A stretch of 64,000 nucleotides of DNA from Candidatus Nanoarchaeia archaeon (GTDB taxonomy: Archaea > Nanobdellota > Nanobdellia > Pacearchaeales > GW2011-AR1). This document shows, in pieces, positions 36,456 to 61,026 of the stretch (its first letter is position 1; every line of letters begins with the position of its first letter). Where the stretch lies: NCBI GenBank assembly GCA_028718805.1, contig JAQUKY010000006.1:1927-65926 (forward strand), written 5' to 3'. Made by a program: the position numbers and the translations under genes. A model generated the notes under the pieces. That model was given only the letters and a program-made list of their open reading frames with translations. It was not told the DNA's origin and did not search any database.

Positions 36456-36505
36456 TAAGGTTTAAAAAATATCGTGTTTTATACTTTTGGGAGTTGATTG
36501 TTAAA

Positions 36506-36631
36506 ATGGATTATGCATGTGCTGAAAGAAGAAGAACCAAAAATGATAAAAAGGCTAAAAGAAGATATAATAAATATAAGAAGGGTGGGAAGTGGCGAGC
36601 AGAGAAAAAAGGTAATTCCCTGAATCATTGA
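36506..36631 (+). CDS. Possible small basic peptide (41 aa)
   Basis: MDYACAERRRTKNDKKAKRRYNKYKKGGKWRAEKKGNSLNH; GGGAG upstream. Confidence 0.3.
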   Translation: MDYACAERRRTKNDKKAKRRYNKYKKGGKWRAEKKGNSLNH

Positions 36632-36644
36632 GAGGTTATAACCC

Positions 36645-36656
36645 TGGCGGGGCTAT
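36645..36656 (+). repeat. att-like core TGGCGGGGCTAT, copy 1
   Basis: Exact match; preceded by AGGTTATAACCC, resembling a degenerate T-arm. Confidence 0.9.
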
Positions 36657-36692
36657 CCCCTAGAATGTGATTTTACAGGGCATCCGATTTTT

Positions 36693-37373
36693 TTAGGATG
36701 CAGGTACGGCTTGTTCATTTAGTTCTACTGCTTTTTCTATTAATTTTTTAAAATCCTTTTCAGTTTTATAAAAATCAAGTAGAGGGTCTATGATCCTATT
36801 TACTTCTGGATAAGAGTTTCTAACTTTGTCTAAAGTAATATCAGACCATAATTTACTTAATTCAGGATTAGCAACCATTAAAAGTATGGGGATTGATTCG
36901 TTTACTCCTGTTGATACTGCTTTCGCAGACATTTTCCCTTTTTTGCATACATTAAAATAATGCAAATGAAATAATTCATGAGCGAGTACATATTTCATAA
37001 TTTTTGCAGGCAAAATATTGCTTAAGATCATTTTATTGTATTTTCCATCAAAAATATCTCCTAATCCGGGAACACTCAGGCTAATGTAACATGTATAAGT
37101 TTTATATTTCCAATCAAATCCGGTAAATTCCTTAATCTTTTGGAAATATTCCCCTTCTATATTTTTCCATTCTTTTTTCAATTGCTTTACAAATTCAATA
37201 AATTCTTGTTTTTTATAGCCTTCTTCTATAGCTTTAATTGCAACATCTTTGTCTAGACTTAGTAATCCTAAATGTTCTGGCTTAATTTTTGAAGTCCCAC
37301 AAACTTTGGCAAACTGATGGAGATATTCTAATTCTTTCTCTGTATTTATTTTAAATTTTACAGTTGTTGCCAT
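36693..37373 (-). CDS. Hypothetical zincin-like protein (C1 cargo)
   Basis: AHELFH HExxH motif with downstream NES glutamate. Confidence 0.6.
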   Translation of the reverse strand: MATTVKFKINTEKELEYLHQFAKVCGTSKIKPEHLGLLSLDKDVAIKAIEEGYKKQEFIEFVKQLKKEWKNIEGEYFQKIKEFTGFDWKYKTYTCYISLSVPGLGDIFDGKYNKMILSNILPAKIMKYVLAHELFHLHYFNVCKKGKMSAKAVSTGVNESIPILLMVANPELSKLWSDITLDKVRNSYPEVNRIIDPLLDFYKTEKDFKKLIEKAVELNEQAVPAS

Positions 37374-37446
37374 CTTTTATTAAATAAGGCGCATATTATA
37401 ACCTTTTCTAGGATGCCCATCCTTATCACATTATGGGCTAGTTATC

Positions 37447-37458
37447 TGGCGGGGCTAT
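37447..37458 (+). repeat. att-like core, copy 2
   Basis: Exact TGGCGGGGCTAT. Confidence 0.9.
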
Positions 37459-37485
37459 CTATCATTAGGGTATATTGACGGAACT

Positions 37486-38244
37486 TTATTTTTTTGCGAG
37501 TTTCCACATCATTTGAAAATAAGCTTCGAAAGCTTCTTTTGCATTCCTACTTTTTAAAACAAAAAAAGTCATCTCTTTGGCAAGATTGATTATAACCTTA
37601 TCAGAATAAATGAGGAATATTGCAGGAGTGAGCATATTCTCTGGCATAAACTTAATTTCTACAGGAGGATATCTCTTAAATTCTTTTGCTAAATTTTTAG
37701 CATGATCATTAATAAGAAATTTAGCTTTAATCTTCTTGTCGGATCTTATTTTTTGAAAATAAAGTGCTAGAGGTAAAAACTCTTTTCCAAAATCATAAAC
37801 TCCCATAATATGAACTTCGTCTCCATTATTTAATTCATCAACTAGATTTGTAAATGCAGTCCTTATGCCCCTGTACCCCGAAAAGATAAATGATTCTTTT
37901 TCATCTTCTTTTTCCTGAGAAAAAGCCAAAAGGCTCGGTAAAAGCTCATTTACTTTTTTTTCTTGTTGTTCTATCTCTTTTTTCTTTTCATTAAGAAAAT
38001 TTAATATCATTTTGGGATTTGTTGCTTTGTAATGCTTAACATTTTCTTTTGTAAAATAACTCACTAACCCTTTTTGGATTAGCTTTTCTAAAACTTCGTA
38101 TACTTTAGAGTTAGCGGTTTTTGATTCGTTGATTATTGGCCCAGTTGAGGAAGAACCTAATTTTAGTAAAGAAAGGTACACTTTAATCTCAGACTGGTTT
38201 AATCCAATCTCTTCTAATTGTAATTCTATTTGTGATATGTCCAT
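37486..38244 (-). CDS. TrmB-family transcriptional regulator (C2)
   Basis: IGLNQSEIKVYLSLLKLG wHTH; FQMMWKLAKK end. Confidence 0.85.
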   Translation of the reverse strand: MDISQIELQLEEIGLNQSEIKVYLSLLKLGSSSTGPIINESKTANSKVYEVLEKLIQKGLVSYFTKENVKHYKATNPKMILNFLNEKKKEIEQQEKKVNELLPSLLAFSQEKEDEKESFIFSGYRGIRTAFTNLVDELNNGDEVHIMGVYDFGKEFLPLALYFQKIRSDKKIKAKFLINDHAKNLAKEFKRYPPVEIKFMPENMLTPAIFLIYSDKVIINLAKEMTFFVLKSRNAKEAFEAYFQMMWKLAKK

Positions 38245-38366
38245 AGATAAGTATCTTGTTATTGATATATAAACCTTTTCTTATTACCCCTACCTAAGGA
38301 GGGGATAATATATAAAAAGAAGGAGGTTGTTACTGTATCATAATAAATAAAACAGACAAAAACAAA

Positions 38367-39029
38367 ATGACAAGAGGAATACAAATATTGAAAGAAAATT
38401 ACGGAATGCCTTATGTACTTTTGAAAACATTCTACCAAGTTGGAGAAGGAATGCCAACAAGAGTTACTATCCATGGAAAATATAACATCCAAAATGAAAA
38501 GATAATTATTCCAAAGCCATTCTATGACTTACATGAGGATATTCTTAGAAGAGATGTTAAACCTAAAATTGCAGATTCTATCATAAAAAAAGGTTTCAAT
38601 GTTGCAACAGGGTTGGATGTATATGCTAAGCTTTACTTTATGTCTGAAACAATGAGTGGTAGTTTTCCAATGAATAGTTCTTATGTAATAAAACTGAATG
38701 AAGTTAAGGGATTGGGATTTCTTACAGAAGAAGGATATGCTGGAATGTTTAAAGAAGGTGCATTTACCTGGAGATTTGATAAAGAACATGTTGAGTATAT
38801 TGGAAAATCTTTAAACTTGCTTGATGAAAATTCAAGGGATAAATGGCCCGATTACAGGAGAATTGTTGAATTGCAAGAAAATTTGAAAAAGAGCGATTAT
38901 AAAGCACATGATTTACATAAAGATTTGTCTAATTTAACAACTAAAACCTCTATTCCCTCAAGAATTATAAGATTAGGAGACAATTCTGATTTAGCAAGCA
39001 GAGGACAGCTAGGCATATTCTCTTTTTAA
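38367..39029 (+). CDS. Hypothetical protein (C2 cargo)
   Basis: 220-aa ORF divergent from trmB. Confidence 0.6.
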   Translation: MTRGIQILKENYGMPYVLLKTFYQVGEGMPTRVTIHGKYNIQNEKIIIPKPFYDLHEDILRRDVKPKIADSIIKKGFNVATGLDVYAKLYFMSETMSGSFPMNSSYVIKLNEVKGLGFLTEEGYAGMFKEGAFTWRFDKEHVEYIGKSLNLLDENSRDKWPDYRRIVELQENLKKSDYKAHDLHKDLSNLTTKTSIPSRIIRLGDNSDLASRGQLGIFSF

Positions 39030-39052
39030 CTTATAGTCTATAAAATTAAATA

Positions 39053-39169
39053 TTTGTCACAGCAAGGTGGTCAGATGATTTTATATATAATCCAGAACTA
39101 AGATAATCAACTGAAATAAAAAAAGTTCTGGATTATACCAAGATGGTAGCAAGTCCTGGCGGGGCTATT
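39053..39169 (+). repeat. Shared cassette right-end module, copy 1 (includes core copy 3 at 39157-39168)
   Basis: 113/117 identical to 60910-61026; internal perfect 14-bp inverted repeat at 39086-39099 / 39124-39137. Confidence 0.93.
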
Positions 39170-39227
39170 ATTGAAAAGTAGTGTGCTCTTAATCGTGGTT
39201 TAATAGCAAGCCACAATAAGAAAGAGC

Positions 39228-39540
39228 ATGACTGACATACACAATTTAAATAGAAGATTAGAAGCAACATTGAGGAAAGTGGAAAATTCTTCTATTTCTG
39301 ATAAGAATAAAAAAGCAATTTTTGAGTTTCATAATTTTTGTTTTAGCGAGGGAATTGGGGCTGGAAAAATCCAAAGATATGTTTTTGACCTGGAGAAAAT
39401 AGTTAATCTTCTTAAGAAAGATTTTGATAAATGTAAGAGAGAAGATATTCAGAAAGTTTGTTGGTTTAATAGAAAAGCAAGGTTTCGAGCGACAAGGCTT
39501 TAGCCAGCGAGAAACCTTTAGGAGATTAATTGTGAAATGA
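39228..39540 (+). pseudogene. Truncated, frameshifted tyrosine integrase N-terminal domain
   Basis: DIHNLNRRLE...ISDKNKKAIFEF..FCFSEGIG..KIQRYVFDL...DFDKCKREDIQKV resembles archaeal XerA-like integrase N-termini as I recall them; removing one T near 39457 continues it as VGLIEKQG; no catalytic R-H-x-x-R-Y region follows. Confidence 0.7.
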
Positions 39541-40115
39541 GAGATAAAAATTATTTTCAACTGGATTTTTATGAAGATAAGGAAAGATTTGCAGATTGTT
39601 ATTCTTTAAACCAAATTAAAGACCATGCTAGAATTCAGTATCTTATAAAAAGAGGTTACAGCTTAACAAAACATTATGATTTAAGAATGAAAGAAGAAAT
39701 ATATTTAACAAAAAACCAGAAAACAGAAACTCCACAACATGCATTTTTGGTTTGGGCTTTACTAAAGTATCTAAGAGAGCAAAATTTTCAGGTCTGGAAT
39801 TACAAGACAATTAAGCCAGATATTATTTTTGAAGTTCAAAATAGAAAAATTGCTATTGAAATTGAGACTGGCAAGAATTTAAGGAATAATAGAAAGCAAT
39901 TTTTGGAAAAAATCAATTCACTTTATAAAAATTTTGGCTATAACTGGTTTTTTGTTGTGACAAACAGGGATTTAGTCAAGAAATATAAGAAGTATGGCAG
40001 GACTTACACAAGAAAAAATGTCATAAAAGCAATCTGGAGGTATGTTAATTTTAAGCCAAGAAATTACATGTTAAAACATCGGTTTTGGAAGGGGGGGATG
40101 CAATGGCATTTATAG
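39537..40115 (+). CDS. PD-(D/E)xK-like nuclease-fold protein
   Basis: KPDIIFEVQNRKIAIEIETG; ATGA overlap with the upstream frame. Confidence 0.55.
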   Translation: MRDKNYFQLDFYEDKERFADCYSLNQIKDHARIQYLIKRGYSLTKHYDLRMKEEIYLTKNQKTETPQHAFLVWALLKYLREQNFQVWNYKTIKPDIIFEVQNRKIAIEIETGKNLRNNRKQFLEKINSLYKNFGYNWFFVVTNRDLVKKYKKYGRTYTRKNVIKAIWRYVNFKPRNYMLKHRFWKGGMQWHL

Positions 40116-40177
40116 ACGGAAGAACTTTAAAAAAATACCGCAATTGACACCACATATAATAAAGGGCTAATTTTAAA

Positions 40178-40471
40178 CTAAAATCTCCTTGATATCCCCC
40201 ATTTTTTGCAAATATGGCAATTATTGCTGAAATCTCTTTTTTCAAATTTGCAAAACGTGCTGTTCTTTATAATATTGTTAAAATCCCTAAATTTCATTTC
40301 CTTTATTTCTAAATTATCAATTATTTTTTGAATGTTATCCTCGCACCTTTGTTTATATTCTTCTACAGGAAGCTCAAATTTTTTGCATTTCCAGCAATGC
40401 ATGGCAAAATACATCCCCTTAAGCCTTTTCAATGGCCATTTTGGCCTTTCTTTTATTTCTTGATTAGCCAT
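40178..40471 (-). CDS. Hypothetical Cys-containing protein
   Basis: CWKC and CHIC motifs; overlaps the dubious 5' extension of the opposite-strand ORF. Confidence 0.4.
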   Translation of the reverse strand: MANQEIKERPKWPLKRLKGMYFAMHCWKCKKFELPVEEYKQRCEDNIQKIIDNLEIKEMKFRDFNNIIKNSTFCKFEKRDFSNNCHICKKWGISRRF

Positions 40472-40504
40472 AAAGAATATATATCTATCAGGATATATAA
40501 ATTT

Positions 40505-41497
40505 ATGAGAGATATAATCCAGAGGCTTTTAGCAACAGATAACTCAAAGGAAAGAACAAAACTTCTGGAAAAATTTAGGGAATTTCAATTTGGCAAGAGT
40601 AGAAGAGAGACAGAAAATATTTTATTTGAGATATTTAAGGATGCCAAGCAAATGCTTGAAAATACTAAAGATAATGAGGAAAAAAGAGTTGCCCTAAGAA
40701 CATTAAATGCAATATTTCTTATTTACCCCTCTGAAACCATGGCAGAATTGCTCCAAGTTAAGGCTAAAGAAACTCCGGTTAAAGACAGGGATGTCATGGA
40801 AATAATTGACATTTGTTTGGAATTGCTGGAAGATAATGATGGAAATTTAAGGCTATCAGCTGCATATTTAATTGATCATTTAAGGGGATATATGCCTGAT
40901 TATAATTATGTTGATTTGTTTTATAATCTGCTTTCTTTAAAGAACTCTCCAAAAAACAAAGGCAAAAATAAGAAAACAATTGAATTTTGTTTAAGTAAAA
41001 TATTTTCTCCATTCCTTGAAGCAATTTTGGACGCAAGTTATCCTCTAGAGGTTAAAAAGATGAAAATAAGAGTTCATTCAAAAAATGAGAAGGTTATTAA
41101 CACTGCTATAGATGTCGAACATTTAGCAAATCAAATGGTATCTGAAACTGAAAAATATATTCAAAAAATTCTGGCAATAAGAGGAGAATATCTTCTTGAA
41201 GGCAATTTTATCCCTTACATAGAAAATATTGGTATTTTTCAGATCTTCTATGAAATGCAAAGGCTAAGAGAACTTTATTTAAAAGGAGAAATAAATAAAG
41301 AATTAATGAAAAATTATCTGAACAGCCGAATTTCTATTTTTGCGAATAATAGAATTGATATGCTTGATGGTCTTTCAGAAAGAGAAGAATTCTCATTGGT
41401 TTTAATGGATTTTAATAAGAATCTTGTTGTTAAAGATCTGCAGGAAACATATGATTTTTTAATAAAAATAAATTCTGTAATAGAAAATCTGAGTTGA
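40505..41497 (+). CDS. Hypothetical HEAT-repeat-like protein
   Basis: Probable ATG at 40505; helical repeats such as DNDGNLRLSAAYLI. Confidence 0.55.
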   Translation: MRDIIQRLLATDNSKERTKLLEKFREFQFGKSRRETENILFEIFKDAKQMLENTKDNEEKRVALRTLNAIFLIYPSETMAELLQVKAKETPVKDRDVMEIIDICLELLEDNDGNLRLSAAYLIDHLRGYMPDYNYVDLFYNLLSLKNSPKNKGKNKKTIEFCLSKIFSPFLEAILDASYPLEVKKMKIRVHSKNEKVINTAIDVEHLANQMVSETEKYIQKILAIRGEYLLEGNFIPYIENIGIFQIFYEMQRLRELYLKGEINKELMKNYLNSRISIFANNRIDMLDGLSEREEFSLVLMDFNKNLVVKDLQETYDFLIKINSVIENLS

Positions 41498-41625
41498 AAC
41501 ATATAAATTTTAATGCACATATCCAATAAATTACCTTCATATTCTTTGTTGCTAATGTGTTATCAGGATAATCCAAAGCTTTATATACCTCTGGTGTATA
41601 TTTATACAATAAAGGTGTATAATAA

Positions 41626-42213
41626 ATGATAACTAATAATGAGAGAAAGGTATTGAAGATGCTGTTGTATGCATTTGGCGAGAGTTATTCAATAAACCGC
41701 ATTGCAAAAGAATGTAAGCTAGCTCCAAATGGAGCATTAAAAATATTAAGAAAATTTGAAAAAGAGGGCATATTAGACTTTGAGAATATTGGAAATATGA
41801 AATCCTATAGCTTAAACTTTGAAGATGAAAAAACAAAGAATATTCTAAGATTAGCTTTAATTCCTGAGTTAAAAGCAAGGCTCAAATATCGGGCTGAGGA
41901 TTTAAAGCATTTGAAGGAATTTACAGAGGCTTGCATTATTTTCGGCTCCTATGCTGATTTAAGAAAAGAGCCAAATGATATAGATTTGTTTTTTATTGTT
42001 AAAAACAAAAAATTTAATGATTATAAAAAAGAAAGCCCTTTGGTTTATAAGACAATGCCTATTAAAGTTCATGATATCCTGCAGACAAATAAAGATGTTG
42101 CTGAAAATCTTAAGAAAAAAGATAAGGTAATTATAGAAATACTTAAAACAGGAATAATCCTATGGGGATATGACAAGATAATTAATATTATTGAAAATGG
42201 CTATAAAAAATAA
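41626..42213 (+). CDS. wHTH + minimal nucleotidyltransferase (MNT) antitoxin
   Basis: N-terminal HTH (SINRIAKECKLAPNGALKIL); IIFGSYA...NDIDLFFI GS-DxD motif. Confidence 0.8.
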   Translation: MITNNERKVLKMLLYAFGESYSINRIAKECKLAPNGALKILRKFEKEGILDFENIGNMKSYSLNFEDEKTKNILRLALIPELKARLKYRAEDLKHLKEFTEACIIFGSYADLRKEPNDIDLFFIVKNKKFNDYKKESPLVYKTMPIKVHDILQTNKDVAENLKKKDKVIIEILKTGIILWGYDKIINIIENGYKK

Positions 42214-42697
42214 GTTAAAAGAATGCATGAAAGAAGGCAAAAAGGGAGAAAGGCATAAAGGATTGAGGGAGATAGAACCTTCAATGAAAATTGCACAAGG
42301 ACATATCAGCAAGGCAATACATAACCTTAATGCAATAGACACTTTTCATGATGATGGATATTCAGACTGGAGTGCATCAGCTGCTTTTTACTGCTTGTAC
42401 CATTGTTTGCTCGCTGTAATCTCCAAAAAAGGCTTTGAGTCTAGAAATCAATCCTGTACTTTTGCATTGATTGAAAACATGATTGAGAATAATGGAATAA
42501 GCCTGACAAAAGAAGAGCTTAAAGAAATATTTGACAAAGATGTGACAGAAGATTTGAGCCATAGCGACAAAATTTTAGATATAAGGGAAAATATGCAGTA
42601 TTCAATTAAAACTGCATTAGAAGAGAAAGAGTTCCAGTTTTTAAAACAGAGAACAAAGTTCTTATTTGATAAATTAAGAAAAGAAGTTGAAAAGTGA
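42191..42697 (+). CDS. HEPN-domain protein (toxin partner)
   Basis: DWSASAAFYCLYHCLLA, SRNQSCT, IRENMQY; overlaps the MNT gene. Confidence 0.8.
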   Translation: MKMAIKNKLKECMKEGKKGERHKGLREIEPSMKIAQGHISKAIHNLNAIDTFHDDGYSDWSASAAFYCLYHCLLAVISKKGFESRNQSCTFALIENMIENNGISLTKEELKEIFDKDVTEDLSHSDKILDIRENMQYSIKTALEEKEFQFLKQRTKFLFDKLRKEVEK

Positions 42698-42790
42698 CAT
42701 CACCAAAAAATATAAATACAAGTGCCACTTTAGATAATTTTAATTGATTAATAACTAAAAAAAGAACACGCTACTTTCTGCCCTAGGCAC

Positions 42791-43870
42791 TGGCGGGGCT
42801 ATATACCTTTTTGGCAGATTTTGGGGATATGGACTTACCTTGAATTTATTATTCTCCTCGAGATTCAAGGCTATTTAAAGACTGCTACGGTGAGAGATAG
42901 AATATATTGTGTTGTTAATCATCTATTCGGAGAGCAGATATTGCTTGAAAATCTGGCTCGAACTCTAAGGATTTTTCATCTTCTCCCATATCAATCTTGG
43001 GATTTATCAAGAACTTAGCTATCTCCTTGCGAGCACATTTAGGTTTCATGTTTTTGACTTGGGGTGCTAGAGAAACCAATGCCTTGTAAGCATCATTTGT
43101 AAATGCAGCAAGATAATCCCACGCAGATTCAAACCTACCTAGGGAATCATAATTTTCAGAATGGCAAGTGGTAGTGGCTATTGAATACAATGCTCTAATT
43201 TTCTGGTCACCAGGCAATTTTTCTATTACACATATAAAACCGCTTATATAATCTGCAATTAAACTGTCTTCACGAACTTTGTCATCTTCTTCAATGTAAT
43301 CAAAGTGATAACGCCAAATATTGTTAAATTTTCTTAGCCAGCCATTTGACTCTGGAGAAGATACTGCCATTTGTAAAACTGAAGCAAGATTTGATATATA
43401 TTCAAATGAATGCACTCTTGTATCTATTTCCCTAAGCCCTTCTTTAACTTTTTTATTAAAGTAATCAACCGTATTAGAGAAATTTATATCTGCATTTTCA
43501 TTTGGTTTTACTGGAACAACTGATTTGGAAAAATCTTCTCCATTTGAACAAAGACCTTCAAGCCCTTTGTAACATAATACTCGCTGGCTCATATTGATAT
43601 TAGGGAATTAAGTTAGACTATTTAACATTTATTATAATCAAATAATACATTCAAATAGTTCTGTGTTTTACCCTGTTAATATTTCCTAACGATATATTTT
43701 TTAGATTTTTCCTTCTAGGATTGTCATCTCTCATTGCTTTTATGGGGGTGTATCTTCATATTTATCGATGGTAAACTAAGCTTTTATATCTCTGGTATAA
43801 GAGCTATATCATAGCCCCTTGAATCTGTTTAAAAGTTCTAGTCTTGGCGGGGCTATATACCTTTTTGGCA
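42791..43870. mobile_element. Cassette C4, bounded by a 26-bp direct repeat
   Basis: TGGCGGGGCTATATACCTTTTTGGCA at 42791-42816 and 43845-43870; weak inverted repeat (21/30) at 42803-42831 / 43810-43839. Confidence 0.75.
42915..43592 (-). CDS. Hypothetical protein (C4 cargo)
   Basis: 225-aa ORF without a recognisable motif. Confidence 0.6.
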   Translation of the reverse strand: MSQRVLCYKGLEGLCSNGEDFSKSVVPVKPNENADINFSNTVDYFNKKVKEGLREIDTRVHSFEYISNLASVLQMAVSSPESNGWLRKFNNIWRYHFDYIEEDDKVREDSLIADYISGFICVIEKLPGDQKIRALYSIATTTCHSENYDSLGRFESAWDYLAAFTNDAYKALVSLAPQVKNMKPKCARKEIAKFLINPKIDMGEDEKSLEFEPDFQAISALRIDD

Positions 43871-43919
43871 TAAAATTCTTTCATAAGTTTTATAAGCATT
43901 CTAAGTTTAATCTTATAAA

Positions 43920-57411: not shown

Positions 57412-58308
57412 ATGAGATTGTTGATGGAAAAAGGAAAGCAGAAAGAATTGCTTAAAAAAGAAAAAGAAAAACGCAAATTAACCTGGAGCAAATTTGCTTT
57501 AATATTGAATATAAGACCCTCTAAGCTAAAAACTTTCTTTAATGAGGAGGTTTTAATGGACAGTTTAACTTTTAATAAATTATTTTTAAAAAAAGAATAT
57601 AAAAAGTTTATTGTGAAAAAATTAGAGAATAACTGGGGGCAATCAAAAGGCGGAAAAAATTCAGATGGTAATTTAAAAGAGATTAAAATTCCGAAGAGAG
57701 CAGAAGAATTAGCAGAGCTTTGGGGAATTCTGCTCGGAGATGGAAATATACAAAAAACTTCTGGATATAAGCTAGGAACATATACTATAAAGGTTACTGG
57801 ACATTCTATATTAGATAGAGAATATCTTATTAAATTTGTTGAACCTTTAATCAAAAATTTGTTTAATGTTAAGATAAGAATATATGAATCAAAGGTTAGT
57901 AACGCACTTAATGTTATTGCAGATAGCAGGAGAATTATTGACTTTTTTGAGGAGAATGAGTTCAAAGCAGGAGATAAAATAAGAAATCAGGTTACAATTC
58001 CTAGTTGGATAAGAAGTAACCATAAATTTTTAGCTGCCTGTTTAAGAGGGCTGTATGATACTGATGGATCTTTTTATAGATTAGGAAACCAGAATAGTTA
58101 CCAGATTAATTTTAAAAATCTTAATAAAACTCTTTTAAAAGACGTTCATGATAGTTTAATTAGTTTGGGTTTAAGCCCTTCAAAAATTAGTGGAAGTATC
58201 CAGATATATATAACAAAAAAATCTGAAATAGCAAAATTTTATAAATTGATTGGATTTCACAATCCTAAGCACCTTAACAAAATAAGAGCTTATTTTAAAG
58301 CCCTGTAG
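57412..58308 (+). CDS. Stand-alone double-motif LAGLIDADG endonuclease-like protein
   Basis: LWGILLGDGNI and LRGLYDTDGSF motifs; N-terminal HTH-like segment; stop codon lies within the tRNA. Confidence 0.8.
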   Translation: MRLLMEKGKQKELLKKEKEKRKLTWSKFALILNIRPSKLKTFFNEEVLMDSLTFNKLFLKKEYKKFIVKKLENNWGQSKGGKNSDGNLKEIKIPKRAEELAELWGILLGDGNIQKTSGYKLGTYTIKVTGHSILDREYLIKFVEPLIKNLFNVKIRIYESKVSNALNVIADSRRIIDFFEENEFKAGDKIRNQVTIPSWIRSNHKFLAACLRGLYDTDGSFYRLGNQNSYQINFKNLNKTLLKDVHDSLISLGLSPSKISGSIQIYITKKSEIAKFYKLIGFHNPKHLNKIRAYFKAL

Positions 58309-58371
58309 TGTAGCGGTCAAGCATTCGGCCCTTTGGAGGCTGAGACCTCGGTTCGAATCCGAGCAGGGCTA
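58299..58371 (+). tRNA. trnQ: tRNA-Gln(UUG), no encoded CCA
   Basis: Cloverleaf: acceptor AGCCCTG/CAGGGCT (A1-U72), anticodon arm CGGCC-CTTTGGA-GGCTG, T arm CTCGG-TTCGAAT-CCGAG. Confidence 0.97.
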
Positions 58372-58399
58372 TCTATCATTATGATATATTGACGGAACT

Positions 58400-59116
58400 T
58401 TATTTCTTTGCGAGTTTCCATAAAGCATTAAACTGGCTTCTAAGAGAATTCGCAATTTCCTTATTTTCGGTAAGTATTGCATAATAAGGAGAAGTCCATA
58501 TAAAATTAGCTACTTTATTTCCATAGACCGCTATTGTTACAGGAGACAGGTATTCTTTAGGCAAATATCTAAACTCAGAATTCTTTGAACTTACTACTAT
58601 TCCTCTTAAATCTTCCCTAACCAAGACTTTTTCATGGATATTATTTTTTACAATTTGATTTAGGAACTGGTGTATGTCTATAGGAAGAACCTGCTGAAAT
58701 CTTCCCTCTTCTCCAAATGCAACATAGTCTTTTTTTGTCCTGATAAGGTCTTTTAATACTGCTTTTAATCCTTCCTTGCCTCTGAATATCTCAACTCTTG
58801 TTTCTTCTTCTTTGGCTTTTGTTAAATTAATAAGCTCTGGCATTACCTCTTGCAATTTTAATTCTTTTTCTTTTAAGTCCTGCAATAATTTTTTGGGATT
58901 AGCAGAAGAAAAGTATTTTACATTATTCTTAATAATGTATGAAACCAATCCTTTTTCAATCAGCTTATTTGTTAACTGATAAATTAAAGTTCTGTCTAAA
59001 TTTGTCTTTTCTGATATTTTTGTAGCAGTGGTTTCTCCTAGCTGAAGAAGGGCAAGGTAAACCTTGCATTCTTTTTCTTCCAATCCCAAATCCTGCAAAA
59101 GCTTTGTCAGTTCCAT
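58400..59116 (-). CDS. TrmB-family transcriptional regulator (cassette B)
   Basis: LGLEEKECKVYLALLQLG; IFRGKEG; FNALWKLAKK. Confidence 0.85.
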   Translation of the reverse strand: MELTKLLQDLGLEEKECKVYLALLQLGETTATKISEKTNLDRTLIYQLTNKLIEKGLVSYIIKNNVKYFSSANPKKLLQDLKEKELKLQEVMPELINLTKAKEEETRVEIFRGKEGLKAVLKDLIRTKKDYVAFGEEGRFQQVLPIDIHQFLNQIVKNNIHEKVLVREDLRGIVVSSKNSEFRYLPKEYLSPVTIAVYGNKVANFIWTSPYYAILTENKEIANSLRSQFNALWKLAKK

Positions 59117-59153
59117 TATAACAATAGAGAATCCTTATTTATAAATTTATTTA

Positions 59154-59176
59154 TTGTTGTTATTTAATCACAACAA
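59154..59176. promoter_or_regulatory. Palindrome TTGTTGT-N9-ACAACAA, putative TrmB operator
   Basis: 7-bp inverted repeat in the divergent promoter region. Confidence 0.5.
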
Positions 59177-59208
59177 ATCTTTAAGTAGTATCTCGTTACT
59201 ATTGGTTT

Positions 59209-59874
59209 ATGGTAAATACAAGAAGTTCGTGTTGTTATGCAAGCGAGAGAGAAGCCACACTATATGGGGCTTTGGCAGAATTAGATGTAAATAAAAAAAG
59301 AGAGCCTGCTCTTATTAAAGTAGTCAAATCTTTTGACTTGTCAATTCTTGATTATGTTAAACCAATCAATAGAAGTCTTCTAGAAATTCAGAATAATTAT
59401 TTACAAAGCGGGAAAAAGGCTAAACATAGAATTGAGGATTATTGGGACAGCAAAGAAATTGATTCTTTTAATGGGTTAGTTAATTGCCTAAATCTCGAAT
59501 CTGACGATTGTGATGCAGTTAGAAAAGGCAAGGTCTTCATAAAAAAGGGAAAAGTGAATGTAATTCCTACTTGCGGTTGGGGGGGAGGAAAATCAAGCGA
59601 TGAGGCAATTAATGGAATGATTTTTGGGGCCGTGTTGGGCGGGGTTTTTTCGTCATTAGGTCAGGCATTTTACCAGATAATCAAAGGAAACTCTATTGAT
59701 ACTTTTAATGTTTATTCTATAGGAAGAACAGCATTGATTGGGGGTTTGATTGTAGGATATATTTTTAGTAGAGGGATGTATATAGAGAGTGCTTTAGTAA
59801 ATCCCTTTGAAAGGATTGCATCAGGACTTGAACAAAGAGCAGATTATGTTTCTAAAAATATATTGGAGTATTAA
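59209..59874 (+). CDS. Hypothetical membrane protein (cassette B cargo)
   Basis: Two Gly-rich hydrophobic segments near the C-terminus. Confidence 0.6.
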   Translation: MVNTRSSCCYASEREATLYGALAELDVNKKREPALIKVVKSFDLSILDYVKPINRSLLEIQNNYLQSGKKAKHRIEDYWDSKEIDSFNGLVNCLNLESDDCDAVRKGKVFIKKGKVNVIPTCGWGGGKSSDEAINGMIFGAVLGGVFSSLGQAFYQIIKGNSIDTFNVYSIGRTALIGGLIVGYIFSRGMYIESALVNPFERIASGLEQRADYVSKNILEY

Positions 59875-59876
59875 AA

Positions 59877-60443
59877 ATGAAATTTAAAAAATTAGTTATA
59901 GGAACTGGAATTGCAGGAGGGCTTGCAGCAATAGTTTTAGGAGGAATTTCTTTGTTTGGGGGGTGGGGGAGTAGGGGAACAAGTGTTGAAAAATGTATTG
60001 GACATTTTAATAGAAAATCTATAGATATTGTAAAAGAAGACATAAGGTTTGGACCAGATCATAAGTATGTGATGATTGATAATAGAGACATAATAGTAGA
60101 TGGTATCATAAAATCAGATGAGGGAAAATATCTTAACATCAGTTCTGGTGCCAGAGTTTTAGTATCTTATGAACCTCGGATATATTCGTTTGTTGAGTAT
60201 TATAAAAAACAACGACTTGAGTCTTTTAAATATTTAGAAAGCAAGGCTGAAATTGATATTTGGGAGAGTACGAGTACGGGATATCCAGCTTATCTATTTG
60301 AAGTAGGACTTGGGTGCATGTGTGTTAAAAAAGGAGCAATAACAAATGATGCGGGAGATAGAGTCTATATTGGAGATGGGTATTTTATAAGACCTGGCAG
60401 TCAAAATAAAGATTCTAATTCTGTTAAGGAGAAAGTAAAATGA
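59877..60443 (+). CDS. Hypothetical exported protein (cassette B cargo)
   Basis: N-terminal signal/anchor. Confidence 0.6.
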   Translation: MKFKKLVIGTGIAGGLAAIVLGGISLFGGWGSRGTSVEKCIGHFNRKSIDIVKEDIRFGPDHKYVMIDNRDIIVDGIIKSDEGKYLNISSGARVLVSYEPRIYSFVEYYKKQRLESFKYLESKAEIDIWESTSTGYPAYLFEVGLGCMCVKKGAITNDAGDRVYIGDGYFIRPGSQNKDSNSVKEKVK

Positions 60444-60751
60444 ACAAAGAAGATATGATTAGTTTTGGGGTGCTTACAGTTATAGCCTTGGCCACATCTA
60501 TGGGTTTTGTCTCGGTTATGAAATATGCCTTAAATCGTAATGGAAAAGAGGCTTTAAATCTTCCACAAAACTCTAACATTAAACAGATTTCACGGCCTGA
60601 AGATTATAATAATGATGGAATATTAGATTATATTGTAAAATATAGAGATGGTAAATCTAAAATTTTTTATGGTAGAGGGTATGATGAAAGAGATATTGAA
60701 GGTAAGGTAGAATGGTACGACTTTGGATCTAGGGCGAGAATCTTAAAATAG
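60440..60751 (+). CDS. Hypothetical membrane-anchored protein with DxNxDG loop
   Basis: N-terminal TM; DYNNDGILD Ca-binding-like motif; ATGA overlap. Confidence 0.6.
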   Translation: MNKEDMISFGVLTVIALATSMGFVSVMKYALNRNGKEALNLPQNSNIKQISRPEDYNNDGILDYIVKYRDGKSKIFYGRGYDERDIEGKVEWYDFGSRARILK

Positions 60752-60770
60752 AATTAAAATTATTTTAAAA

Positions 60771-60908
60771 ATGCAATCAAAACAATTCACCATCACAGAA
60801 AGAATAGCTAAACATGGCAGTCAAGCTATAATTGTAATTCCAAAGATTCTAGAAGATAATCTAAAACCGGGAATTTTGACTCAAGTAACTATTGAAATAC
60901 TAAGTTGA
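60771..60908 (+). CDS. Small AbrB/SpoVT-like (swapped-hairpin) protein (45 aa), not in ORF track
   Basis: MQSKQFTITERIAKHGSQAIIVIPKILEDNLKPGILTQVTIEILS; G-x4-IVIPK pattern. Confidence 0.6.
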   Translation: MQSKQFTITERIAKHGSQAIIVIPKILEDNLKPGILTQVTIEILS

Positions 60909-60909
60909 T

Positions 60910-61026
60910 TTTGTCACAGCAAGGTGGTCGGATGATTTTATATATAACTCAGAACTGAGATAATCAACTGAAATAAAAAAAGTTCTGGATTATACCAAGA
61001 TGGTAGCAAGTCCTGGCGGGGCTATT
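60910..61026 (+). repeat. Shared cassette right-end module, copy 2 (includes core copy 6)
   Basis: 113/117 identical to 39053-39169. Confidence 0.93.

Follow-up and report, generated by a model that had tools for sequence, protein, structure and literature searches.

DPANN archaea have tiny genomes in which few mobile elements are recognised, and for this reason their gain of accessory genes is poorly known. In the integron attC site, both halves of the inverted repeat (R''-L''...L'-R') are located at the 3' end of the cassette and the crossover takes place in R', while the dif-like site of Xer/dif and IMEX systems consists of 11-nt inverted repeats around a 6-nt spacer. Tandem ("accretive") integration of islands at the 3' ends of tRNA or tmRNA genes has been described for the tycheposons of Prochlorococcus (bioRxiv 10.1101/2020.12.28.424599) and the ssrA islands of Dehalococcoides (PMC3146451). 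Tycheposons are stacked elements with partial tRNA copies between them, and fragmented integrases and orphan partial tRNAs represent older events (bioRxiv 10.1101/2020.12.28.424599). CIMEs and other recombinase-less, att-flanked derivatives of integrative elements have been reviewed (PMC5704250). The attP/attB cores of tyrosine integrases, such as lambda C-O-C' and the archaeal SSV-type sites, are the subject of a further review, which also cites the sublocation rules of Williams 2002, taken here in the form cited there (PMC8371274).

The window (the whole 64,000-nt stretch of DNA that was analysed) contains cassettes bounded by a 12-nt core, TGGCGGGGCTAT, which corresponds to the last 11 nt of tRNA-Gln(CTG) followed by a T. 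This core occurs in 12 copies, distributed over three arrays of the 1.18-Mb genome, and one of the arrays begins at the matching tRNA-Gln(CTG) gene (G000 C10 c[43683,43758]). In many genomes of the genus the core is likewise the 3' end of tRNA-Gln. Six exact copies were found in the window, where 1.2 would be expected with up to two mismatches allowed. Cores, arms and associated features, all on the forward strand, are as follows.

36645-36656, +, core 1, att repeat identical to the tRNA-Gln(CTG) 3' end
36664-36685, +, C1 left arm, AATGTGAT-N6-GGGCATCC, gap of 7 from core 1
37411-37432, +, C1 right arm, GGATGCCC-N6-ATCACATT, gap of 14 to core 2
37447-37458, +, core 2
37459-37495, +, C2 left arm (ctatcattagggtatattgacggaacttt...), gap 0, 93% identity with the left end of B
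39114-39149, +, C2 right arm, gap 7, within a 116-nt right-end module common to C2 and B
39157-39168, +, core 3
39175-39190, +, C3 left arm, AAAGTAGTGTGCTCTT, gap 6
39228-39503, +, N-terminal remnant (~77 aa) of a tyrosine integrase in C3, beginning 60 nt past core 3
42762-42777, +, C3 right arm, AAGAACACGCTACTTT, gap 13
42791-42802, +, core 4
42803-42831, +, C4 left arm (atacctttttggcagattttggggatatg), opening a 97-nt left-end module also present in two other cassettes of the genome
43810-43839, +, C4 right arm, containing ATAGCCCC (43811-43818), the inverse of the core's GGGGCTAT
43845-43856, +, core 5, distal end of the array
58299-58371, +, tRNA-Gln(TTG), left anchor of cassette B, 3' end GAGCAGGGCTA with 3 differences from the core
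58373-58409, +, B left arm, gap 0
60971-61006, +, B right arm, gap 7 to core B
61014-61025, +, core B

An earlier note on this DNA had reported that each cassette possesses its own terminal inverted repeats and that the right arm of C1, C2, C3 and B lies exactly 7 nt farther from the core than the left arm. Its arm and core coordinates all agreed with the sequence, the gaps being 7/14, 0/7, 6/13 and 0/7, and such repeats were also found beyond the window, on other contigs and in relatives and metagenomes. The C2 arm pair, 37459-37487 against 39122-39149, aligns with one indel and the C3 arms match at 14 of 16 positions; perfect complements of the C3 left arm occur in the right ends of three metagenome loci (L051, L061 and L064). 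The C4 pair is weak, and its right arm looks like a degenerate tRNA-Gln 5' end. Cassette B extends from tRNA-Gln(TTG) to core B (58373-61013).

The significance of the repeats was evaluated by an ungapped inverted-repeat scan over 33 offsets, with 5000 random genomic pseudo-cassettes as the null. Six of the ten cassettes of the genome scored best at exactly +7, C2 and C4 at +6. For offset 7, where the null scores had their 99.9th percentile at 8, the observed scores were 8 (C1), 11 (C3), 17 (E1-E2), 15 (T2-T3) and 9 (T3-T4). In a gapped local alignment, the probability of reaching the observed score among 3000 random pseudo-cassettes was 0.028 for C1, <0.0004 for C2, 0.012 for C3, 0.040 for C4 and <0.0004 for B. 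A set of 19 core-bounded cassettes was then assembled from this genome, other contigs, relatives and metagenomes. In 15 of them the best inverted repeat had its right arm at a core distance exceeding that of the left by 5-8 nt (usually 7), a class with a null rate of 8.7% (binomial P = 3e-13); no such arms were found in T0-T1 (20 kb), T1-T2, L065_2975 and L051_41. The terminal inverted repeats are real and highly non-random. Most of the mini-inserts of 82-143 nt behind tRNA-Gln in relatives are without arms too.

Most arms fit the template nTAYCWTTTTG-N10-GGG, which C1 and C3 do not. The view that arm sequences differ between cassettes was correct for the outer parts, which are family-specific, and has to be amended for the inner part, where a consensus is shared. 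Since most arms share it, even non-cognate end pairs are enriched at offset 7 (27/186 against ~6 expected). Within families the arm sequence is conserved, and the differences are uncompensated (C2 versus B left arm; L062 versus L065). The bipartite arms in related families suggest recognition by related integrases.

Conservation of the ends extends beyond the arms. C2 and B have common ends of 58 nt (93%) and 116 nt (97%), while their TrmB-like genes are only 30% identical, and C4, E2-E3 and T3-T4 share ends around unrelated cargo; overall, ends are 85-97% identical between cassettes of unrelated cargo. The units measure 0.07-3.6 kb and nearly all are without an integrase; the 70-nt cassette L015 is nothing but two arms, and T3-T4 contains a decayed internal junction. 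The cargo includes regulators, a nucleotidyltransferase/HEPN pair and genes of no known function, and the C1 gene, the C4 gene and both TrmB-like genes (C2, B) lie on the minus strand. What comes after a C3-type right end differs between genomes: here it is a C4-type cassette, in L051, L061 and L064 a GAAGA-type one. Arrays are located at tRNA-Gln and at a secondary site within a pilus locus. A related organism (L065) holds a different array at the corresponding site upstream of the prepilin peptidase gene. One resident core copy lies upstream of this gene.

The integrase remnant of C3 shows 41% identity to residues 2-77 of a 392-aa integrase of the same genome (G000 C4:11328-12506), with an HMM match of 1.5e-23. 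The 60-nt left end of C3 is homologous to the tRNA-integrase interval of the same family, in which the gene starts ~60 nt (up to ~95 nt) past the tRNA end in 11 of 12 tRNA-linked loci; the exception is a tRNA-Gln locus (L091) with a start at 282 nt. The spacing of the remnant after its core equals that between tRNA and integrase in the homologous loci. Four integrase-bearing elements with both att sites, at other tRNAs, display element-specific inverted repeats with a constant 5-nt offset: L085 (tRNA-Gly, 4.0 kb, intact integrase, 14/15 matches, gaps 3/8), L074 (tRNA-Glu, 6.5 kb, intact integrase, 14/17, gaps 8/13), L089 (tRNA-Ser, 1.9 kb, truncated integrase, 10/11, gaps 14/19) and G000 C2 (tRNA-Ser, 11.7 kb, a different integrase subfamily, 10/10, gaps 7/12). 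The 5-nt value at these tRNAs places the dyad one base away from its position in tRNA-Gln. Elements at tRNA-Gly, -Glu and -Ser that still carry an integrase of the DPANN family represented by the C3 remnant have the same arm-core-arm layout as the cassettes. With the family HMM, no intact integrase was detected in or beside the three arrays or in 21 related loci of other genomes and metagenomes (L047-L067). Many contigs of the surveyed loci are short. C1, C2, C4, B and the other arrays are without an integrase, the C3 remnant being the only trace, and PF00589 matches above the Pfam cut-off lie outside the arrays (C8:16 kb, C4, C13 and C2). The search for a cognate autonomous element gave none. 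Closest to one come the C3 remnant and, in the relative G034, an element at tRNA-Gln that bears an integrase and has a different arm type.

These cassettes are probably small integrative elements, mostly integrase-less, whose inverted repeats represent both arms of a tyrosine-integrase attachment site around a crossover in the tRNA-Gln end. Site-specific recombination would have inserted them successively, each time at a copy of the 11 nt that end tRNA-Gln, with the repeats serving as arms P and P' of each element. In the excised circle the arms would flank the crossover as an imperfect palindrome, the arrangement expected if a tyrosine-recombinase dimer binds there. We infer integrase binding, the crossover position and the mobility of the cassettes from sequence patterns. 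The earlier proposal that a circularised cassette would form an imperfect palindrome centred on N7 plus core holds, in agreement with the folds of the junctions.

The arms are symmetric about core nt 3 and are putative inverted binding sites. Strand exchange would cover ~7 bp, C-TGGCGG, which run from position -1 to core nt 6 with core nt 3 in the middle, where the T-stem meets the acceptor stem. On the right of the crossover the element would carry GGCTA(T) and so rebuild the tRNA 3' end upon integration; six unconstrained bases on the left would mirror the six on the right. The conserved block would be lopsided because the element must carry GGCTA(T) to restore the tRNA, and the extra 7 nt (1 + 6) between the 12-nt core and the right arm would arise because the dyad sits at core nt 3 and not at the core centre. 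The offset can be explained without invoking structure, since what the dyad marks would be the crossover rather than the centre of the conserved stretch. On the left, the identity block shares its edge with a 7-bp window that has the dyad at its centre. Among 32 distinct non-tRNA cores, 29 have C at position -1, with position -2 mixed, and in L085 and L074 the repeat begins exactly at the predicted edge. An intact target tRNA is present at one end of cassette B (tRNA-Gln(TTG), 58299-58371) and of the C10 array. Evidence of excision or integration is indirect: relatives have empty sites, and L065 holds a different array at the same site. The integrase-less cassettes would be decayed elements, with C3 in mid-decay, or non-autonomous passengers moved in trans; the truncated integrase of C3, the decayed junction of T3-T4 and the arms-only L015 form a decay series. 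Some observations, among them the four of 19 cassettes without arms and the failure to find an intact integrase in or beside the arrays or in the 21 related loci, count against the attachment-site explanation. No tRNA gene adjoins the window array (36645-43856) or the C8 array, the six bases beside the crossover are asymmetric, and between the proposed crossover and the start of the symmetric arms lie 6 bp (C2-type) to 13 bp (C1, C3), with arms 11-27 nt long; classical core-type sites are shorter and closer in. In addition, decay of whole elements alone would not predict nearly identical ends around unrelated cargo.

The conserved ends could point instead to a platform mobilised in trans, in which the end modules (arms plus core) are the sole mobile-element function, the cargo is swapped and the recombinase is encoded elsewhere, as in an integron; possible sources are the integrase of a transient virus or plasmid and the XerA-like enzyme that the host encodes on contig C8. 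The divergent TrmB-like genes within the C2 and B ends, the shared ends of C4, E2-E3 and T3-T4, the arms-only 70-nt cassette, a cassette order that varies between genomes, the different array at the peptidase-gene site and the 21 pattern-matched loci without an integrase all agree with it. However, none of the arrays has a linked candidate recombinase, many of the contigs are short, mosaic cargo within conserved ends is also common among ordinary integrative elements, and C3 and L025 show that integrases were once present. This alternative is unlikely. The platform and the attachment-site explanation have the arm-binding mechanism in common and differ on origin and autonomy. It is conceivable, if doubtful, that Pacearchaeota-type DPANN archaea possess an integron-like but unrelated cassette system, in which the end modules are the only element function, one to five genes are exchanged as cargo and a tyrosine integrase acting in trans inserts cassettes at tRNA-Gln and at resident core copies.

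Recognition of structure, as in integron attC or CTX-type IMEX attP, had been suggested earlier: the arms would pair as a hairpin stem with the core in the loop, and the recombinase would read the shape. When the circular junctions were rebuilt and folded, DNA hairpins of -10.5 to -21.7 kcal/mol were obtained, with z of -1.5 to -6.2 against shuffled flanks. Outer arm parts diverge between families yet stay complementary, a break in the arms recurs at about the same distance, 16-20 nt out, and loosely resembles the unpaired spacer of attC, and most cassettes lack an integrase of their own. The fold is nevertheless not independent evidence, because any inverted repeat folds, and the unpaired core would offer no duplex for cleavage by a tyrosine recombinase. 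Because the two arms are at opposite ends of the cassette, the hairpin is impossible in the array and unusable for excision, and in-situ junctions fold no differently from shuffles. Moreover, arms are kept as sequence families with a common motif and uncompensated changes, and ordinary integrase-bearing elements have the identical layout. Hairpin recognition has no specific support, is unnecessary here and seems slightly less probable even than the platform. The other earlier suggestion, a cognate enzyme for each cassette, fits better, given the element-specific arms of integrase-bearing relatives and the C3 remnant with its homologous left end.

Inverted repeats with a flanking direct repeat are also the formal signature of transposons or MITE-like elements, the 12-nt core then being a target-site duplication at a favoured target, and the 70-nt cassette could be a miniature form. 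This is very improbable: the direct repeat does not vary from copy to copy and matches a tRNA 3' end, the inverted repeats abut it unequally (0/7, 6/13, 7/14), one cassette has a tyrosine-integrase remnant at the canonical position, the scanned products of C1-C4 include no transposase (Pfam), and no copies were seen at unrelated targets with different 12-nt duplications. Chance matches in AT-rich flanks, to which the singly weak C4 (P about 0.04) and C1 (P about 0.03) might point, deserve next to no credence and were refuted by the pseudo-cassette controls, both by the 15/19 in the 5-8 class and by scores of 15-19.5, reached by 0 of 3000 pseudo-cassettes except a single control at 15.0.

On the attachment-site explanation, the arrays would provide a concrete route of accessory-gene gain in DPANN archaea, through small units with a tRNA-end core and defined arms. 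The fixed offset predicts where the integrase would cut (C-TGGCGG, at the T-stem/acceptor-stem junction) and which bases it would read. If integrase-less cassettes were moved in trans, they would be an archaeal tyrosine-integrase counterpart of integron cassettes.

With integron cassettes, including archaeal ones, they share arrays of small cassettes, diverse cargo, a short core with variable imperfect inverted repeats and the occurrence of "empty" cassettes. In contrast to integrons, no IntI-type integrase with attI and Pc was found here and PF00589 matches lie elsewhere in the genome, the arms are at opposite cassette ends with the crossover placed between them, the core is a tRNA 3' end, and genes are on both strands and not co-oriented with the array. 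Unlike IMEX, the arms are 19-33 nt apart and do not have the dif-like format. Tyrosine-integrase att cores resemble these sites in the imperfect inverted repeats around a short overlap and in an identity block from the crossover to the tRNA 3' end that rebuilds the gene; the arms here differ in being bipartite, 11-27 nt long and 6-13 bp outside the putative overlap, with asymmetric bases beside it. CIMEs are similarly att-flanked, without recombination genes, in tandem with relatives and presumably mobilised in trans by a cognate integrase, but they are defined by a known ICE/IME partner in the species, whereas the cassettes here belong to many arm families and no active partner for them was found. 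In accretive islands, as here, successive elements are separated only by a partial tRNA copy and carry accessory cargo such as toxin-antitoxin pairs and regulators. The differences are the DPANN (Pacearchaeota-type) host, the 0.07-3.6 kb units almost all integrase-less, the position of two of the three arrays away from a tRNA gene, and end modules conserved around unrelated cargo. The DPANN cassette stacks are best read as a variant of this known route of genomic-island building.

The 12-nt core, TGGCGGGGCTAT, was found in six exact copies in the window, all on the + strand. Five of them are the boundaries of four cassettes, and the sixth closes a further cassette, B, which begins at a tRNA-Gln(TTG) gene:

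36645-43856, + strand, five core copies bounding cassettes C1 to C4
within 36645-43856, cassette C1, 790 nt
within 36645-43856, cassette C2, 1698 nt
within 36645-43856, cassette C3, 3622 nt
within 36645-43856, cassette C4, 1042 nt
58299-58371, tRNA-Gln(TTG), left boundary of cassette B
61014, + strand, sixth core copy, right boundary of cassette B

The 1.18-Mb source assembly, a MAG of 86.7% completeness, holds 12 exact core copies and four with one mismatch. Aragorn places one core copy at the genuine 3' terminus of tRNA-Gln(CTG), encoded on contig C10; the core therefore spans the acceptor strand together with the three T-stem bases before it, followed by the discriminator base and one extra T. 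This gene heads a second array, with cassettes of 20 kb, 4.2 kb, 2.2 kb and 1.8 kb (T0-T1 to T3-T4), and a third array (E1-E2, E2-E3) lies on contig C8; two of the four one-mismatch copies close these two arrays. An Rfam scan of 35500-62000 (E <= 0.1) returned tRNA alone, and the tRNA-like right end of C4 was not scored as a tRNA.

The earlier note had described inverted repeats at the cassette ends, with the right arm 7 nt farther from the core than the left, and all its coordinates proved correct against the sequence. In an ungapped scan, the 50 nt that follow each core were compared, at 33 offsets, with the 50 nt leading up to the next core, reverse-complemented. The best offset was exactly +7 in six of the ten cassettes of the source genome and +6 in C2 and C4, both of which carry an indel. 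Relative to 5000 random genomic pseudo-cassettes of matched length, the offset-7 scores of C1, C3, E1-E2, T2-T3 and T3-T4 were at or above the 99.9th percentile. Gapped local alignment covered 19 cassettes, some of them independent cases taken from relatives and from metagenome contigs; the metagenome loci had been chosen by left-arm motif, with right arms no part of the selection. The alignment started at an offset of 5-8 in 15 of the 19, against 8.7% of controls (binomial P = 3e-13). The repeats are thus non-random, and the offset of about 7 nt recurs in other genomes; the highest scores all lay beyond the window, in E1-E2 (19, 27-nt arms), T2-T3 (19.5), L065 (18) and L062 (17). Arms were absent from the remaining 4 of the 19 cassettes, and also from most of the inserts, 82-143 nt long, that follow tRNA-Gln in relatives and have another end type.

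It had also been stated that the arm sequences differ between cassettes. This holds for C1 and C3, whose arms are distinct sequences placed 6-7 nt farther out, but most arms belong to families with a common motif. The motif nTAYCWTTTTG directly follows the core at most left ends, and its inverse sits 7 nt before the core at many right ends. About 11 nt beyond it comes a second common box, GGG/GGGG; the bases around the two boxes are specific to each family. Offset 7 was enriched among non-cognate end pairs too (27/186). Since nTAYCWTTTTG was not found downstream of the empty tRNA-Gln sites of relatives, the motif is part of the elements.

The favoured reading of the arms is that they are the attP arms of a tyrosine integrase. 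A 91-aa ORF located 60 nt past core 3 was 41% identical to the N-terminal part of a tyrosine integrase of 392 aa encoded elsewhere in the genome. Domains recognized in the latter are Phage_integrase, a zinc ribbon and, weakly, a SAM-like N-domain. Homologues of this integrase are present in Pace-, Woese- and Aenigmarchaeota. In 11 of 12 tRNA-linked loci (tRNA-Ser, -Asp, -Glu and -Gly), the integrase starts about 60 nt, and up to about 95 nt, past the tRNA 3' end in the same orientation, and at the tRNA-Gln locus L091 an integrase fragment begins 282 nt downstream. Several of the tRNA-linked homologues are N-terminal stumps, as in C3. Where both att sites are known, element-specific inverted repeats lie on either side of the tRNA-end repeat, always at an offset of 5.

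Integrase-linked elements with both att sites known (locus, target, length, arm match, left/right gaps to the core)
L085, tRNA-Gly, 4.0 kb, 14/15, 3/8
L074, tRNA-Glu, 6.5 kb, 14/17, 8/13
L089, tRNA-Ser, 1.9 kb, 10/11, 14/19

An 11.7-kb tRNA-Ser element of the source genome, with an integrase of another subfamily, carries an inverted repeat of 10 nt with no mismatch and gaps of 7/12. Because integrase-linked tRNA elements have the same layout, arm-core-arm appears as their normal attP design, and the arms would differ because the elements, and presumably the enzymes too, differ.

The attP reading also offers a reason for the fixed offset. An element inserting into a tRNA gene would have to supply the sequence from the crossover through the tRNA 3' end, so that the repeat shared by attL and attR would extend rightwards from the crossover's left edge. 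Of 32 distinct non-tRNA cores in the Gln cassettes, 29 have C at position -1, and the base at -2 varies, so the identity block begins at -1. A 7-bp overlap from this position would be C-TGGCGG, centred on core nt 3, which we infer to coincide exactly with the dyad implied by gaps 0/7, 6/13 and 7/14. Offset 7 would then consist of one overlap base plus the mirror image of GGCTAT. In the offset-5 elements the dyad lies at nt 4, and the repeat begins at nt 1 in L085 and L074, three bases to its left. The unequal cores of cassette B have just GGGCTAT in common. A crossover within GGGCTAT, considered on this basis, was not decisive, because the same core pair is expected from a heteroduplex overlap and selection for an intact tRNA. 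These cores would agree with the C-TGGCGG overlap, as the expected segregant of a mismatched overlap that leaves tRNA-Gln(TTG) intact.

The window array has no tRNA anchor. It splits a conserved gene cluster that comprises pilin genes, a small basic ORF (MDYA...KKGG, 36506-36631) and a prepilin peptidase gene (36456-36644 | 43857-43919). In 13 relatives these genes adjoin with no core between them, and no attB-like core was found at the empty site. In relatives a GAGGT box stands ahead of the peptidase start; in the source genome the array separates the two, with the box on its far side. In L065 (Ga0315293_10023277), a different three-core array lies 54 nt upstream of a 69.5%-identical peptidase gene, which makes the site a recurrent landing pad.

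Cassette ends are far better conserved than contents: those of C2 and B are 93-97% identical, against just 30% for their TrmB-like genes. C4, E2-E3 and T3-T4 have ends of about 45-105 nt in common and unrelated cargo. Loci with shared cassette ends are recorded as Pacearchaeota/Nanoarchaeota MAGs, and in one relative a 70-nt cassette consists of two arms and nothing else. The suggestion of a cognate enzyme for each cassette fits the element-specific arms of integrase-linked elements; ends shared by cassettes of unrelated cargo would not be predicted by simple decay of whole elements. No intact integrase was detected near any array or in 21 pattern-matched loci of other genomes and metagenomes (L047-L067). 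When 21 related loci and contigs C6, C8 and C10 were searched with tblastn and a family HMM, the sole matches were the C3/L025 remnants, the L022 integrase and a XerA-like gene; a search of genome contigs for full-length relatives of the C3 fragment found none. The lack of a nearby integrase, the conserved ends, the arms-only cassette and an unanchored array at a recurrent landing pad leave room for a second, less probable reading, in which the cassettes may form a trans-mobilised, integron-like system. Among IMG/VR sequences, searched for episomal forms, the core+arm pattern gave 0 matches. A looser pattern gave 33, none resembling cassette junctions; most were in contigs of 44-66% G+C, and three at 37-38% G+C had unrelated flanks. 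Terminal overlaps were not found in the short metagenome contigs checked for circularity.

Some cargo recurs. In C2 (37486-38244, -), B (58400-59116, -), E1-E2 and L058, the first gene lies on the minus strand, stops about 30-100 nt short of the left arm and encodes a TrmB-like protein with a winged helix, about 240-250 aa long; genes for such a protein are located elsewhere within L062 and the 20-kb T0-T1. These proteins are 27-46% identical to each other and may be cassette-borne regulators or recombination accessory factors. C3 carries at 41626-42697 a nucleotidyltransferase (Polbeta/NTP_transf_2, N-terminal winged-helix domain) paired with a HEPN protein, an arrangement typical of toxin-antitoxin or defence modules, with related pairs in T1-T2 and L051. 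The last gene of B is a 45-aa AbrB/SpoVT-like ORF (60771-60908), with homologues at the end of E1-E2, just before core E2, and in T1-T2 (77-82% nucleotide identity over about 120-135 nt); the cassettes sharing it have different ends.

All three arrays are closed by C4-type cassettes (42803-42899 with 43811-43844; contig C8, 42631-42727; contig C10, minus strand), and the distal core has one mismatch in two of the three. The 97-nt left module contains CCTTGAAT plus its inverse, and the right end has CCTTGAAT again within a degenerate tRNA-Gln-like stretch (ATAGCCCCTTGAATCTG...core); these copies could be extra binding sites. In T3-T4, an internal C4-type right end about 1040-1110 nt from the left core precedes a heavily degraded core, TAACGGATATAT, indicating two cassettes fused through junction decay; E2-E3 has an internal left-end piece too. 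The C3 integrase remnant breaks at 39465-39503 in an imperfect palindrome, ggtttcgagcgacaaggctttagccagcgagaaacc, which recurs on contig C4 (44073-44108, 11/12 codons) and may be a small dispersed repeat with a part in the truncation. Gene-less inserts of 123-143 nt lie behind tRNA-Gln in L015, L016, L018 and L047/L060, the last starting at a non-tRNA core. They share another end type, aaatattcgcc...ggttcgacgagc...gcgagc-core, which resembles the left end of an integrase-bearing tRNA-Gln element in a relative (L022), and they have the appearance of scars left by a second integrase subfamily with the same core.

The earlier note had further proposed that the recombinase reads structure, a hairpin, rather than sequence. 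Rebuilt circular junctions do fold as DNA, at -10.5 to -21.7 kcal/mol (z -1.5 to -6.2), but junctions as present in the array fold no differently from shuffles, and the arms fall into sequence families with shared boxes, which renders hairpin recognition improbable. A TIR transposon was rejected, and a dif-like site is ruled out by the 19-33-nt spacer between the arms. Unlike in integrons, IntI was not found, each cassette has one arm at either end and genes occur on both strands, which excludes that identity. The closest known systems are tandem islands at tRNA/tmRNA genes, such as tycheposons and ssrA islands, together with recombinase-less att-flanked CIMEs.
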